64,000 nt of DNA, taken from positions 712,084-776,083 of the forward strand of contig OY782180.1 in assembly GCA_963677675.1 (NCBI GenBank), read 5' to 3'. A program made the position numbers and the translations under genes. This document shows positions 27,822-32,911 of the stretch, in pieces. Position 1 is the stretch's first letter. Every line of letters begins with the position of its first letter. Origin of the DNA: Bacteroidales bacterium. GTDB lineage: Bacteria > Bacteroidota > Bacteroidia > Bacteroidales > UBA932. Under the pieces are notes generated by a model, which saw only the letters and a program-made list of their open reading frames with translations, had not been told where the DNA came from and made no database searches.

Positions 27822-28334
27822 TCATTTAAAAATATGTTTTAATGGATTGTATATTTTTTCAAGTACACTTGTTTCTGCAGTAATTATTTCGGCATCTCCC
27901 TCAAGAACTGCTGCCGCATTTATGGAGAGCCCCTTATTTGTTGTGAATCCGTGGGGGAAAACCAATTCAACAGTGTAAAATTTACTTTCTCCCTGTTTTG
28001 AAGGCAAAAGTTTAATACCAGATACTTCTGCTTCAATTGAGCCATATTCAATGTATGGATAGGCTCTCAGCATAATGGTTACATCCTGGCCCAGTCTAAC
28101 CCTTTCAACTTTGGACCCGGTGAGTACAAGAGTACCTTTAAAACTTGCTACCCCGCTAATTGAAACAGAAGCCCTGATATTATCGGAAAATTTAAAGTTT
28201 GCGCCAAATACAAAAAGTGAAATTACTATTGCTATCATTAAAAAATTACCCCACCGGATTATCCATTTTGGTGGTCTGGAGAGAATATCGTTAATATCTT
28301 CCGACTTTAATTCTATTTTTCTCTCATTAGACAT
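27822..28334 (-). CDS. Short HlyD-family periplasmic adaptor (about 170 aa; lipoyl and alpha-hairpin region absent)
   Basis: ELKSEDINDILSRPPKWIIRWG plus a TM, joined directly to the beta-barrel motif GQDVTIMLRAYPYIEYG...GDAEIIT...LEKI. Confidence 0.8.
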   Translation of the reverse strand: MSNERKIELKSEDINDILSRPPKWIIRWGNFLMIAIVISLFVFGANFKFSDNIRASVSISGVASFKGTLVLTGSKVERVRLGQDVTIMLRAYPYIEYGSIEAEVSGIKLLPSKQGESKFYTVELVFPHGFTTNKGLSINAAAVLEGDAEIITAETSVLEKIYNPLKHIFK

Positions 28335-30519
28335 ATAGCTGATTTTTAACAAGTTCATAATAAGGTCCCTGTTTGGCAACTAATTCCTCATGGCTCCCCT
28401 CCTCCATCACGACACCTTTATCCAGTACTACTATTTTATCTGCATTTTTTACAGTACTCAGGCGGTGCGCTACAACAATAACTGTCCGCCCTACAAAAAA
28501 GCTGTTGAGATTCTTCATTATCTCTCTTTCATTGTTTGCATCAAGTGCATTTGTTGCTTCGTCAAATATGATAAACTCCGGATTTTTATACACTGCTCTT
28601 GCAATTAACAGTCTCTGTTTTTGTCCCATGCTGAGCCCGTTTCCCTCCTGCCCTATTTTTGTGTTGTATTTGAGAGGAAGTGATTCGATAAATTCTCTGA
28701 TATTTGCAATTTCTACAGCCTTAAGCAACCTGTCTTCGTCAATCTTTTCCACTCCGGGAGCAATGTTGTTTGCAATTGTATCAGAGAAAATAAATCCATC
28801 CTGCATAACAACACCGCATTTGGACCGCCATGCGCTCATACTAAGGTTGAGTAGCCTGTTTGGCCCGTAAAAGATTTCACCGAAAGTTGCGGAGTAAAAA
28901 CCAAGCAAAAGTTTAATGAGAGTAGTTTTTCCGCTGCCGCTCGTGCCAACTATTGCCGTTATTTTTCCCGAAGGAATAATGAGGTTAATGTTTTTTAGGA
29001 CATACCCTGCTCCGGCACCTTCGTATTTAAAAAACATATTGTCGATTACAATATTCTCTCCTGAAGGAATTTCGGAAACTAATGTTTCGCTTGTATTCTC
29101 TTCCTCCTTTTTGTCGTGAATTTCTGCCAGCCTCTCAAGGCTTATTTTTGCATCCTGAGAAGATTGCATAAAGGCAATAATCTGAGCAACCGGGGAATTA
29201 AGCTGGCCATTAATAAACTGCACAGACAACATCATACCTAAAGTGAGGTCGCCGTCTATTACCGATTTTGCAGCAATAACAGTTATGAAAATGTTTTTAA
29301 GCTGATTGATGAGGGTAGCCCCGGCCTCCTGATACTGCCCGAGCGCAAGTCCTTTTATATTCAGCTTAAAGAGTTTTGCCTGAATTTTCTCCCATTCCCA
29401 GCGTTTTTGTCTTTCGCAGGAGTTTAGCTTGATTTCCTGCATGCCTGTAATAAGTTCAATTACCGAACTCTGGTTTGCAGCATTCTGGGTGAATGATTTA
29501 TTATCCAAATCCCTCCTGCGCCTCATGAACTGAGATACCCACAACAAATATATGATTGAACCAACAAGGAAAATTAAAAATATTTTCGGACTGTAATAAA
29601 GAAGTACAGCACCAAAAATTAATATGTTGAACAAAGAAAATAAAATGCTTAAAGATGATCCTGTAAGGAAATTTTGTATTCGTTTATGGTCGCCTATTCT
29701 CTGAAGCAGGTCGCCGGTCATTCTGGTATCGAAAAAACCAATCGGAAGCTTCATGAGCTTTGTGAGAAAATCGGAAAGAAGCGAAATGTTTATTCTCGTT
29801 CCAAGGTGGAGGAGAATCCAGCCCCTTATGAAATCGACGGATGCCATACTGAGAGTGAGCATGAGCTGAGCAAGAAGAACGAGCCAGATAAAGCTTATGT
29901 TTCTTTCACCGATACCAACATCAACAATGCTCTGCGTGAGAAAAGGAAGACAAAGCTGCAACAGGCTTCCGAGCAGCAAACCGCATATTACCTGAATAAT
30001 AAGTTGCCTGTGGGGTTTAAGATAAGAAAAGAGGAACGAAAAGCCTTTAGGGTTTATAGTTTCTCCCTCAACTTTATAAAACTGTGGCGTGGGTTCCAGA
30101 AAAAGAGCAATTCCTCTTCCCTGGCCATCGCTGACTGTTGTGAGCCATGATTTTTTGAATTCGTCTGCAGTAAGTTTTACAAGACCTGTTGCGGGATCGG
30201 CAATTAACATTCTGATATTTTCCCCGCTTCCCTTCACTCCGTACAAAACTACAAAGTGTTTCTGGTTCCAGTGCAGTATGCAGGGCAATGTTCCTTTGCA
30301 TAATTCTTCGAACGAAAGCCGTGCACCGAGACTTCTGAGGCCAATGCTTTCCGCAGCCTTGCTTATTCCGAATAAATTTACGCCTTGCTTTGAAAATTCA
30401 CATTTCTCTCGCAGTGTCTCCAGTGTATAGTGGCGGCCATAGAAGTTTGCGATCATCCTGAGCGATGATGGTCCGCAGTCTGTTGAATCCAGCTGAGAGA
30501 AGTGTTTGAATCCCTTCAC
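28327..30519 (-). CDS. Peptidase C39-containing ABC transporter (PCAT; bacteriocin/pheromone processing exporter)
   Basis: QLDSTDCG (catalytic Cys), HFVV (His), IADPA (Asp); TMD; Walker A GTSGSGKTT, LSMGQKQR, DEATNALD, AHRL; GTG start. Confidence 0.96.
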   Translation of the reverse strand: MKGFKHFSQLDSTDCGPSSLRMIANFYGRHYTLETLREKCEFSKQGVNLFGISKAAESIGLRSLGARLSFEELCKGTLPCILHWNQKHFVVLYGVKGSGENIRMLIADPATGLVKLTADEFKKSWLTTVSDGQGRGIALFLEPTPQFYKVEGETINPKGFSFLFSYLKPHRQLIIQVICGLLLGSLLQLCLPFLTQSIVDVGIGERNISFIWLVLLAQLMLTLSMASVDFIRGWILLHLGTRINISLLSDFLTKLMKLPIGFFDTRMTGDLLQRIGDHKRIQNFLTGSSLSILFSLFNILIFGAVLLYYSPKIFLIFLVGSIIYLLWVSQFMRRRRDLDNKSFTQNAANQSSVIELITGMQEIKLNSCERQKRWEWEKIQAKLFKLNIKGLALGQYQEAGATLINQLKNIFITVIAAKSVIDGDLTLGMMLSVQFINGQLNSPVAQIIAFMQSSQDAKISLERLAEIHDKKEEENTSETLVSEIPSGENIVIDNMFFKYEGAGAGYVLKNINLIIPSGKITAIVGTSGSGKTTLIKLLLGFYSATFGEIFYGPNRLLNLSMSAWRSKCGVVMQDGFIFSDTIANNIAPGVEKIDEDRLLKAVEIANIREFIESLPLKYNTKIGQEGNGLSMGQKQRLLIARAVYKNPEFIIFDEATNALDANNEREIMKNLNSFFVGRTVIVVAHRLSTVKNADKIVVLDKGVVMEEGSHEELVAKQGPYYELVKNQLYV

Positions 30520-30599
30520 TTTTATAACAAATTCATTTTAAATAATTTGGACAATTGTAACAATTATCCCAATGCATAATATAATTATGCCGTTCAATT

Positions 30600-30641
30600 G
30601 TAGTTTAAATGCTGAAAATCAGCATATTGTCATTAAACTAC
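30600..30641. other. Nested stem-loop between the precursor and PCAT genes
   Basis: GTAGTTTAA-ATGCTGA-AAA-TCAGCAT-(bulge)-TTAAACTAC; second hairpin GCATAAT-ATA-ATTATGC at 30574-30590. Confidence 0.5.
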
Positions 30642-30661
30642 CTAAAATTCTTAAGAAATAC

Positions 30662-30799
30662 TTAATTTCTTCCGTCGCGGATAATGATGTAAACTACGTT
30701 ACCTTCGCTGTCGATTATTTGTAAAACTTTGTCACCGCCGATTACATTAATCATCTCTTGTTCATTCAAATTTTCAAATGTTGTGTTTGTTGTTTTCAT
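30662..30799 (-). CDS. Double-glycine-leader peptide precursor (45 aa), absent from the ORF track
   Basis: MKTTNTTFENLNEQEMINVIGG|DKVLQIIDSEGNVVYIIIRDGRN*. The leader fits the LSxxELxxIxGG consensus, and the gene lies immediately upstream of a PCAT. Confidence 0.88.
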   Translation of the reverse strand: MKTTNTTFENLNEQEMINVIGGDKVLQIIDSEGNVVYIIIRDGRN

Positions 30800-30844
30800 T
30801 GCATTTATTGTTTTTGTTCATACAAATAAATTAATAAAAATTGT

Positions 30845-30852
30845 TAGATTTG
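30845..30852 (+). promoter_or_regulatory. Bacteroidetes primary-sigma -7 element (TAnnTTTG) for the HK/RR operon
   Basis: TAGATTTG about 40 nt upstream of ATG 30892. Confidence 0.65.
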
Positions 30853-30859
30853 CATACAA

Positions 30860-30892
30860 ATTACTGACTGTTTACTGATAGTTTGCTGAAAA
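30860..30892. promoter_or_regulatory. Three direct repeats in 11-bp phase, candidate OmpR/PhoB-type regulator site
   Basis: ATTACTGACTG / TTTACTGATAG / TTTGCTGAAAA (core TTRCTGA). Confidence 0.6.
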
Positions 30893-32265
30893 TGCTAAAT
30901 CGCGCACTCTCCATTTCAATTATCGCCATTCTTTTTCTTCTCTCCCTTCAGGGGGCATGGCTCGTGAGAATCATTGAAAATGAGAAAACTAAATTTAAAA
31001 CTGATGCCGAAAAAATTTTAAAAGACGCTACAAATAAGGAATTAAACACAAGGCTAAAAACACTTAACCAAAGTAATTTTAGCGTAGTTCTTTCAAATAA
31101 TTTTTCTCCAGATAAAGTTTCTTCAAATACAAAGGTTCAAACTTTAGATATTTCCAAGTCAAGACCATACACAAAAGTTACTCTGGAAGAGGCTCTTCAA
31201 GAGGCATATAAAGATGATTTTCCTTTGAATCTGGATACTTTATCCGCAATTTTTTCAAGATTGCTGGCAAAAGAACAAAAATCTACAAATTACAAACTCG
31301 CATATATTTCCTCCGATACAACAAAAATCATTGAGTCTGAAAAGACAAATACAAATATATTTTTCCTGAACTCTTCATTTGAGACAACATTACCACTAAC
31401 TGTATCGAAAGATCTCTCAATTAAGGCAACTATTTTCTATCCCCGCACTGTATTTAAAGGAGACCTGCTTACAATATTGATTTTGTCCCTTGTTTTAACG
31501 ATATTTATTCTGTTCAGCATAGTCATGCAGACACGAATGTTATATAAACAGGTATCGCTTGCAAAGCTCAAGGAGAACATCACACACTTCCTCACGCACG
31601 AGCTCCGTTCACCTCTTCAGTCTTCAATAACCAATCTTGAGGTTGGGCAAATGGCCGACAGCAAAACAGCACCTTATTTTCTTGAGAAAACGAAGGAGCA
31701 GCTTTACTTTCTAAATGGACTCATCGAAAATATCCTGGATATAAATAAGTTTGAGAAACGTCAGTCTTCCCTTAAAAAAGAGCTGTTTGATATAAATGCA
31801 GCAATTGAACCGCATATCGCAAGGCATAATGTGGATGCGAAGAAAACCGTTACAATTTCCACAGACATCACACCCGGAAACGAGATGTTTTATGGCGACA
31901 AGCTTCATATTTCCAATGCTATTGGAAATCTTATAGACAATGCAATCAAGTATTCAAACGATCCTGTGAACATTATAGTTTCGGCAAAAGAAGACAAGCG
32001 TTTTTACAACATCTCTGTTGAAGACAACGGTATTGGAATACCAAAGGATGAACAATCAAAAGTATTTGAGAAATTCTACAGGGTAAATAAGAGAGAACAC
32101 TCTCAAAAAGGCAAGGGTTTCGGCCTCGGTCTAACTTATGTTATGTGGGTGGTTAAGGCCCATAAAGGAAAAATATCTCTCACCAGCGAGGTGGGAACGG
32201 GAAGTAAGTTTACATTATCACTAATTAAAAACGAACATGGCAAAGAAAATACTGCTCGCGGATGA
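30892..32265 (+). CDS. Sensor histidine kinase (2 TM, about 165-aa periplasmic domain, HisKA, HATPase)
   Basis: THELRSPL H-box, NLIDNAIKY N-box, DNGIGI, FEKFYRV, GFGLGL. Confidence 0.95.
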   Translation: MLNRALSISIIAILFLLSLQGAWLVRIIENEKTKFKTDAEKILKDATNKELNTRLKTLNQSNFSVVLSNNFSPDKVSSNTKVQTLDISKSRPYTKVTLEEALQEAYKDDFPLNLDTLSAIFSRLLAKEQKSTNYKLAYISSDTTKIIESEKTNTNIFFLNSSFETTLPLTVSKDLSIKATIFYPRTVFKGDLLTILILSLVLTIFILFSIVMQTRMLYKQVSLAKLKENITHFLTHELRSPLQSSITNLEVGQMADSKTAPYFLEKTKEQLYFLNGLIENILDINKFEKRQSSLKKELFDINAAIEPHIARHNVDAKKTVTISTDITPGNEMFYGDKLHISNAIGNLIDNAIKYSNDPVNIIVSAKEDKRFYNISVEDNGIGIPKDEQSKVFEKFYRVNKREHSQKGKGFGLGLTYVMWVVKAHKGKISLTSEVGTGSKFTLSLIKNEHGKENTARG

Positions 32266-32911
32266 CGAGTTAAACTTCGGCTATGCGATGAACGAGTTCC
32301 TGAAAATGAATGGTTATGACCTCAAATTCGTGAATGACGGGAGGAGTGCGCTTGAGCAATACCACATTTTTCACCCGGATCTTTTGCTTTTTGATGTAAA
32401 TATGCCTGAAATTGACGGATTCGAACTCGCTAAGCTAATACGGGCAACAGACAAAAACATTCCGATTATCTTTATCACCTCTATAAGCGACGACAGCAGC
32501 GTTGCAAACGGTTTTGAAATAGGCTGCAGCGACTACCTTAAAAAACCTTTCGGCCTTAGAGAGCTGATTATACGAGTTGAAAAATGTCTTAAAATTTCAA
32601 CAAAAGACAACGACATTTTTACAATCGGAAGCATGAATTATTCTCCGGAAGACAGAAGCCTCATTCAGCAGGATGGTTCATCAATTACCCTCTCATTCTA
32701 CGAAAACAGCCTTTTACAAATACTTTGCAACAACTACAATCAGATTTGCAAGATTAACGACCTTGTAAATACAATTTGGGGAGACAAAGATATCGATACA
32801 AAAAAATCTCTTGAGGCTCTGGCGTCTCACCTGAGAAAAAAGCTTTCAGAAACCGGCATTAATGTGGAGAACATACGCGGTGTGGGTTACAGACTCAGAA
32901 AAACGGAGTAA
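32237..32911 (+). CDS. OmpR/PhoB family response regulator
   Basis: ADDE, FDVNMP phospho-Asp, KKPF, winged helix ending NIRGVGYRL. Confidence 0.95.
   Translation: MAKKILLADDELNFGYAMNEFLKMNGYDLKFVNDGRSALEQYHIFHPDLLLFDVNMPEIDGFELAKLIRATDKNIPIIFITSISDDSSVANGFEIGCSDYLKKPFGLRELIIRVEKCLKISTKDNDIFTIGSMNYSPEDRSLIQQDGSSITLSFYENSLLQILCNNYNQICKINDLVNTIWGDKDIDTKKSLEALASHLRKKLSETGINVENIRGVGYRLRKTE

Follow-up and report, generated by a model that had tools for sequence, protein, structure and literature searches.

Phased direct repeats between a double-glycine peptide operon and a kinase–regulator operon as the probable operator of the adjacent OmpR/PhoB-type regulator in a genus of uncultured Bacteroidales

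Genes and repeats at the locus

The window (the entire 64-kb stretch of DNA analysed here) is from a genus of uncultured Bacteroidales to which 'Bacteroidales bacterium CF' (CP006772) also belongs, and the segment described here contains two divergently transcribed operons. The leftwards-transcribed operon begins with a gene coding for a 45-residue double-glycine precursor peptide (30662–30799, reverse strand; MKTTNTTFENLNEQEMINVIGG / DKVLQIIDSEGNVVYIIIRDGRN, the second part being 23 residues long), which is present in nearly all orthologous loci. It is followed by the first of the export genes (28327–30519, reverse strand), which codes for an ABC exporter with an N-terminal C39 peptidase domain (Peptidase_C39, ABC_membrane and ABC_tran), and then by genes for a short HlyD-like adaptor, a small membrane protein and a TolC-like protein. 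The core peptide lacks cysteine, and no LanB/C or LanM is encoded in the operon. The rightwards-transcribed operon codes for a sensor histidine kinase (30892–32265, forward strand), in which two membrane segments surround a periplasmic domain of ~165 residues and are followed by HisKA and HATPase_c domains, and for a response regulator of the OmpR/PhoB family (32237–32911, forward strand). The regulator matches Response_reg at 89.7 bits (cut-off 30.2) and Trans_reg_C at 49.3 bits (cut-off 26.2); Asp53 was read from its sequence, and its recognition helix is KKSLEALASH198LRKK.

There is a 142-nt spacer between the stop codon of the precursor gene and the start of the exporter gene (30520–30661, reverse strand) that contains stable hairpins (z −3.4), with a terminator-like stem at 30569–30549 and then an A/T-rich tail; this stem might terminate transcription partially and in this way fix how much exporter is made relative to the peptide. 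Elsewhere in the genus, one locus (L024 in G023) has a tandem pair of precursor genes, one of them with a longer cysteine-rich core (RFVITFIDMNSIKCCEVIENCTDRYQSAEIVIC), in contrast to the cysteine-free hairpin-like cores of the other loci. In three genomes the kinase gene has in-frame TAA stops or is split (L116 in G048, L117 in G046, and L119/L122 in G061), and these could reflect either decay of the system or assembly errors.

Between the precursor and kinase genes are three direct repeats with a period of 11 bp, TTACTGA at 30861–30867 and 30872–30878, and TTGCTGA at 30883–30889. We re-read the sequence, and all of the coordinates assigned in a first-pass annotation to these repeats and to the −7 box of the kinase promoter are correct; the repeats are 62–90 nt upstream of the precursor ATG, in agreement with the 60–90 nt given there. 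The same annotation described the unit as a heptamer, and although the 11-bp phased triple stands, the conserved part is only the 5-bp core RCTGA, with TTTG or AATG ahead of it, and there is a fourth copy. The cores, all read on the forward strand, are R1 (ACTGA, 30863–30867), R2 (ACTGA, 30874–30878) and R3 (GCTGA, 30885–30889), and the R3 unit, TTTGCTGA, is the most conserved. The fourth unit, R0 (30852–30856), is degenerate, with GCATA (within TTTGCATA in the window) or GCACA ahead of R1–R3 in the same phase, and either TTTGCNCA or TTTGCATA is present at the R0 phase both in the two-component loci and at other target sites. R3 ends 2 nt ahead of the kinase ATG at 30892, which is a conserved start; the TTG at 30883 taken from the list of open reading frames is not conserved as a start.

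Is such an arrangement expected by chance, or from a neutral tandem duplication without function? The region is AT-rich, and the Tandem Repeats Finder score at this single locus is low (37, for 2.6 copies with a period of 11 bp). However, TTRCTGA-N4-TTRCTGA with up to one mismatch is matched in the 64-kb window only by two overlapping instances, compared with the 0.14 expected from shuffles. A genome-wide scan, which the first-pass annotation had suggested as a means of defining the regulon, finds RCTGA-N6-RCTGA-N6-RCTGA at just two positions in the 2.43-Mb genome, one at the window locus and the other at genome positions 1919238–1919264, and a scan of the genome allowing one core mismatch gave nothing convincing beyond these two. 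The triple is present in 23 of the 52 genomes of the genus, whereas a backwards-pattern control matches in only one of the 52. Together with a gap-free alignment over ~40 diverged loci (see below), these observations leave chance or neutral duplication with a probability close to nil, and the conservation data rule it out.

Promoter geometry and target sites elsewhere

The −7 box of Bacteroidota sigma-A promoters is TAnnTTTG and is located at −12 to −5 (PMC9723704). The kinase–regulator operon has a rightward box of this type (TAGATTTG, 30845–30852, forward strand) with a predicted start at ~30857, and TAnnTTTG is present on the kinase side in all 35 main-group orthologues. The TTTG of R0 is common to this box. 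Ten sites outside the two-component loci were inspected, and all of them retain TTTGCNCA but lack the TA with which the rightward TAnnTTTG starts; the kinase promoter thus seems to have arisen over the proximal unit of the operator.

The precursor gene was described as lacking a consensus TAnnTTTG promoter; there is, however, a near-consensus −7-like box (TTTATTTG, 30823–30830, reverse strand) that fits at seven of the eight positions, and this leftward box (ACAAATAAATTAATAA) does not vary within the genus. From its position, the start of the precursor/export operon is predicted at ~30818, with a 19-nt leader to the ATG at 30799. A sigma-70 promoter scan gave matches no commoner than in shuffles, and that model is not applicable to Bacteroidota promoters. 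Numbered from the predicted leftward start, R0 is at −34 to −38, R1 at −45 to −49, R2 at −56 to −60 and R3 at −67 to −71. Numbered from the predicted kinase start, the four units are at −5 to −1, +7 to +11, +18 to +22 and +29 to +33, such that R0–R3 together extend from −5 to +33 relative to that start, and only ~39 nt separate the two divergent predicted starts.

The distance from the leftward box to the R1 core is exactly 40 nt, and the same spacing recurs at other target promoters. At least 13 sites outside the two-component loci have a leftward TAnnTTTG whose distance to the first full core is exactly 40 nt, and they front at least five kinds of gene, including those for a 7TM kinase, a TonB-dependent receptor, a GLPGLI-like protein and a 147-residue secreted protein. 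To the right of the outside sites there is in most cases nothing but a converging gene that ends 3–50 nt away. In a few of them the 40-nt geometry is absent, the nearest leftward gene is 240–320 nt away, or a rightward gene is present (L041, L043 and L045). It is the sites away from the two-component genes that decide the direction. Because of the 40-nt spacing to leftward boxes and the converging gene ends, the repeats are best read as upstream sites from which leftward promoters are activated, and in the window this would be the promoter of the peptide/export operon; a spacing so exact in phase is in keeping with an activator in contact with RNA polymerase, such as PhoB.

One example is the second operator in the source genome (G000:C1:1919198–1919264), where a leftward TAGATTTG box is followed 40 nt on by three GCTGA cores (1919238–1919264). 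It is 60 nt upstream of a gene for an orphan kinase with a HisKA_7TM-PAS-HisKA-HATPase organization (genome 1917424–1919178). The regulator may control this second sensor, and the regulon predicted for the source genome consists of the peptide/export operon and the orphan 7TM kinase. In two other genomes (G001 and G044) there are four-unit GCTGA operators (L045, L066 and L067) located 250–320 nt upstream of genes for small secreted cysteine-rich proteins of 84–109 residues, and it is possible that these are further secreted-peptide targets of the regulator in other species.

The same geometry bears on whether the regulator, acting at its own operator, might instead be a repressor of the peptide promoter, or only an autoregulator of the kinase operon that does not activate the peptide genes. 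R0 and R1 overlap the region of a would-be −33 element, the repeats extend over nt 1–33 of the predicted kinase transcript, and repression is within the reach of the OmpR family. We nonetheless consider this unlikely. A fixed spacing, exact in helical phase, at genes that are unrelated to one another is usual for activators in contact with polymerase and is not needed by repressors, at most of the sites away from the two-component genes a rightward gene is missing altogether, and the leftward box in the window (TTTATTTG) departs from the consensus as would be expected of an activator-dependent promoter. We therefore infer activation rather than repression of the leftward promoter.

A role at the level of RNA, through structure, protein binding or stop codons in the 5′ leader of the kinase transcript, is very improbable. 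The repeats make up nearly the whole of the predicted 35-nt kinase leader, and their TGA triplets, spaced 11 nt apart, cover all three frames; yet the leader fold is not significant (z +0.41), and the repeats are also present at sites with a converging gene end on the right, where there is no such leader. No Rfam match was found in 30300–31100. The TGA triplets are gone in the lineages with CTCA, CCTA and CTTA cores described below, and this rules out the three-frame stop reading.

Conservation and joint change of operator core and recognition helix

Orthologues of the regulator with at least 62% identity are present in 20 of the 24 genomes of the genus sampled first, the kinase is present in 26 of 27 further genomes, and the orthologous loci retain the divergent layout with the precursor and exporter genes. 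No indel breaks the 66-nt stretch between the leftward box ACAAATAAATTAATAA and the kinase ATG, either in 35 distinct main-group sequences, with kinase identities as low as 51–60% among them, or across ~40 orthologous loci, and the positions of R1–R3 are invariant in all 35. Conservation is highest in the columns of the leftward box, of the rightward TAnnTTTG and of the three cores, and the sequence is variable to the left of the leftward box. The first-pass annotation had named failure of the repeats to be conserved in orthologous intergenic regions as an outcome that would count against it, and their position is kept in all of these ~40 loci. A contig scan for additional orthologues recovered mostly the same genomes and no new distinct operator sequences.

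The positions are fixed, and the sequences of the three cores change jointly. Most loci have CTGA, seven have CTCA, one has CCTA and six have CTTA, the last of these forming a deep sister group in which the regulator is only ~44% identical. As judged from a scan of the genus, the core switch is regulon-wide. The CTGA-type genomes have additional loci elsewhere with three or four GCTGA units, and the CTCA-type genomes (such as G003, G010, G014, G047 and G062) have additional loci with three or four GCTCA units and no typical GCTGA triples. One example is the gene for the 7TM histidine kinase, which has three GCTGA units upstream in five genomes and three GCTCA units upstream in G003 and G010. 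This gene is absent from the CTTA and CCTA genomes and does not provide a third instance of the co-switch, and its distant homologues in other genomes (45–52% identity) have no upstream repeats. A search for the regulon of the CTTA group found, beyond the two-component locus, a few extra MCTTA triples that appear to be chance matches, a backwards control being of similar frequency. We note that the source genome also contains an unrelated 11-bp tandem repeat (three copies of ACCTAAAATAA at G000:C1:1614243–1614269) just after a GC-rich hairpin, which is like the CCTA pattern in form only.

The recognition helix of the regulator differs among the same groups. It is ...KKSLEALASHLRKK... in the CTGA-type genomes, ...KR.LEA..SNLR.K... 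in the CTCA and CCTA types, and ...LDVL.HKTRKK... in the CTTA type; residue 198 is thus His with CTGA, Asn with CTCA or CCTA, and Lys with CTTA. When 24 CTGA-type regulators are compared with six of the CTCA type, just four of the 224 columns discriminate between them (46, 119, 190 and 198), and two of these, 190 (K190R) and 198 (H198N), are both inside the 12-residue recognition helix. In an alignment to RegX3, the counterpart of His198 is the second Arg of the IRRLRK motif, and we take this to be the position of PhoB Arg201, with column 190 presumably equivalent to PhoB R193. In PhoB, Arg201 makes a base-specific hydrogen bond to guanine in each half-site of the pho box (PMC3973317). Two loci with mixed operators (CTCA, CTCA, CTGA) have an intermediate regulator, with R190 and H198. 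There are exceptions to the correspondence: L113 has His198 with CTAA, CTTA and CTTA cores, and L105 and L107 have His198 with two CTCA cores.

In a tree of the kinase plus regulator, the Asn loci are in one clade of five together with two loci of unresolved placement, and the His-to-Asn and G-to-C switch may represent between one and three independent events. With so few events the covariation is statistically limited, although its coherence is not affected. Since a single His/Asn switch would be compatible with the tree, the covariation could be a coincidence of lineage, in which case a different DNA-binding protein, either the other winged-helix regulator or an unrelated factor, would act at the repeats and their adjacency to the two-component system would be incidental. 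We regard this as quite improbable. Two of only four discriminating columns are within the recognition helix, at the presumed equivalents of PhoB R193 and R201, the intermediate genotype accompanies the intermediate operator, and there is a third state in which Lys198 is paired with CTTA. Moreover, in every genome the operator is located upstream of the regulator's own operon, and the helix of the only other winged-helix regulator in the source genome (RTVDVHIARLRKKL) differs and is PhoB-like.

The proposal that the adjacent regulator acts at the repeats and activates the peptide/export operon is supported by the retention of their position in ~40 loci, by the joint change of the cores and of helix residues 190 and 198, and by the 40-nt spacing. 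Comparison among genomes, which is what these conclusions rest on, shows that the operator is real, that it works leftward, and that it is linked to the adjacent regulator. We put at about 0.8 the probability that the adjacent OmpR/PhoB-type regulator (32237–32911) has its operator in these repeats and from there activates the leftward peptide/export operon.

A proposed mechanism and its relation to known systems

If the adjacent regulator does act at this operator as an activator, its phosphorylated molecules would bind head to tail to the 11-bp-phased half-sites R1–R3, and probably more weakly to R0. R0 is probably a half-site that is weaker than the others; however, it does not undergo the G/C switch seen in R1–R3, and for this reason it may not be a half-site at all. 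Positioned at approximately −34 to −71 of the leftward promoter, the regulator would recruit or stabilise RNA polymerase in the manner of PhoB at pho boxes, and the genes for the double-glycine precursor and for the C39-ABC, adaptor and TolC-like export proteins would be switched on. Because the TTTG of R0 is shared with the kinase −7 box, R1–R3 are at +7 to +33, and the two starts are ~39 nt apart, occupancy of the operator should damp the kinase promoter, and from this geometry we infer negative autoregulation of the kinase–regulator operon. With the regulator on the kinase promoter and leader, initiation would thus shift from the kinase promoter towards the peptide promoter. The CTTA-type loci (L037–L039, L117, L118 and L120) depart from this arrangement. 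Their repeats end 11 nt rather than 2 nt ahead of the kinase ATG, there is no TAnnTTTG ahead of the kinase gene or the repeats, and TAATTTTT is present between the third repeat and the ATG. In this group the kinase promoter may be positioned otherwise, downstream of the operator, and damping of the system's own promoter may therefore not be general.

The operator itself is similar to the pho boxes to which PhoB binds in E. coli (e.g. at pstS and phoA). Both involve an OmpR/PhoB-type regulator, 11-bp direct repeats and head-to-tail binding (predicted here), and in both the sites occupy the −35 region and the DNA upstream of it at an activator-dependent promoter. The pho-box half-site is CTGTCA, and strong promoters have two pho boxes and hence four half-sites; here there are three cores in exact phase plus a degenerate fourth, and three or four units at sites elsewhere in the genus. 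There are also clear differences. The core is RCTGA rather than CTGTCA, and its orientation relative to the activated promoter is reversed, the half-site on the leftward strand being TCAGY. The promoter is of the Bacteroidota sigma-A type, the divergent promoter of the regulator's own operon is also covered, and the signal is unrelated to phosphate. A further likeness is that a single residue of the helix, Arg201 in PhoB and putatively His198 here, would read one base of each half-site (PMC3973317).

The circuit as a whole, by analogy, appears to resemble most closely lantibiotic autoinduction by NisRK (nisA/nisF) and SpaRK (the spa-box). These also are peptide loci with a dedicated kinase that has two membrane segments and an extracytoplasmic sensor, an OmpR-type regulator, and short direct repeats about one helical turn apart. 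The spa-box is reportedly, in work of Stein in 2003 and of Kleerebezem in 2004, a pentanucleotide repeat with a 6-nt spacer, and the nis site is said to be TCT-N8-TCT. The NisRK and SpaRK systems are Gram-positive and act on lanthipeptides with LanB/C/T enzymes, whereas here an unmodified, cysteine-free double-glycine peptide would be exported through C39-ABC and TolC-like proteins in a diderm. The SpaRK regulator activates the peptide and export promoters, and its own operon is not regulated by SpaRK (PMC8991943). In contrast, the operator described here is on the kinase promoter.

Two other types of system share some of these features. In ComCDE, BlpRH and PlnABCD, a peptide with a double-glycine leader is cleaved and exported by an ABC transporter with a C39 domain, there is a neighbouring two-component system with direct-repeat operators at the controlled promoters, and the peptide and the kinase sensor domain evolve fast. 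However, these systems use LytTR regulators acting on 9-bp repeats ~21 bp apart and polytopic HPK10 kinases, and the locus described here has neither a LytTR regulator nor the 21-bp spacing but a winged-helix Trans_reg_C regulator, an 11-bp period and a kinase with a periplasmic sensor. The second is microcin PDI of E. coli, which like the peptide here is a Gram-negative double-glycine-leader peptide whose gene is under an OmpR-type regulator; phosphorylated OmpR, acting with EnvZ, activates mcpM through up to three sites in the promoter (PMC5311971). It differs in that its regulator is a global osmolarity system encoded elsewhere rather than a dedicated divergent neighbour, and no sensing of the peptide has been proposed.

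For the locus described here, the peptide and the sensor domain both diverge rapidly. The mean p-distance is 0.54 for the mature peptide and 0.56 for the periplasmic sensor domain, compared with 0.23 for the kinase core. Across 32 loci, the distances of the peptide and of the sensor are correlated when the core distance is controlled for (partial Mantel r 0.44, permutation p 0.0005), a value that phylogeny and saturation may inflate, and the reverse control is nil (r 0.03, 32 loci); the regions behind the co-divergence are 30892–31460 for the kinase and 30662–30730 for the peptide. This is suggestive of the peptide being the signal of the kinase, as the feedback switch proposed in the first-pass annotation would require. 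A tentative model, which we think less likely than not, is a Gram-negative, quorum-sensing-like circuit of peptide autoinduction, in which the kinase would sense the exported hairpin peptide in the periplasm and the phosphorylated regulator would flip the overlapping promoters, turning the peptide operon on and the receptor operon down, with the regulon being retuned by the His/Asn/Lys198 and G/C/T switch. Peptide-based autoinduction is usually considered a Gram-positive trait. In the literature on Bacteroidota double-glycine peptides with a dedicated two-component circuit, we found only one predicted Bacteroidales RiPP cluster for which a kinase/regulator pair is mentioned (PMC10352776).

An anonymous intergenic repeat thus becomes a defined candidate operator, with a regulator assigned to it, a regulon predicted and the promoter geometry worked out. 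The operator is of a known type, in an unusual Gram-negative peptide circuit, and what commends it for further study is the natural co-switch of operator and recognition helix and its place in a possible peptide-sensing circuit of Bacteroidota. The genus appears to provide a natural recognition switch of one residue and one base, with His, Asn or Lys at position 198 accompanying G, C or T in the core, that retunes a whole regulon. The joint change of operator core and helix would be a natural experiment on the specificity of OmpR-family regulators and on the co-evolution of their regulons, and one that can be tested by swapping a single residue. For the Bacteroidota more broadly, the operator would provide the cis-regulatory link through which to ask whether they run peptide-based autoinduction.
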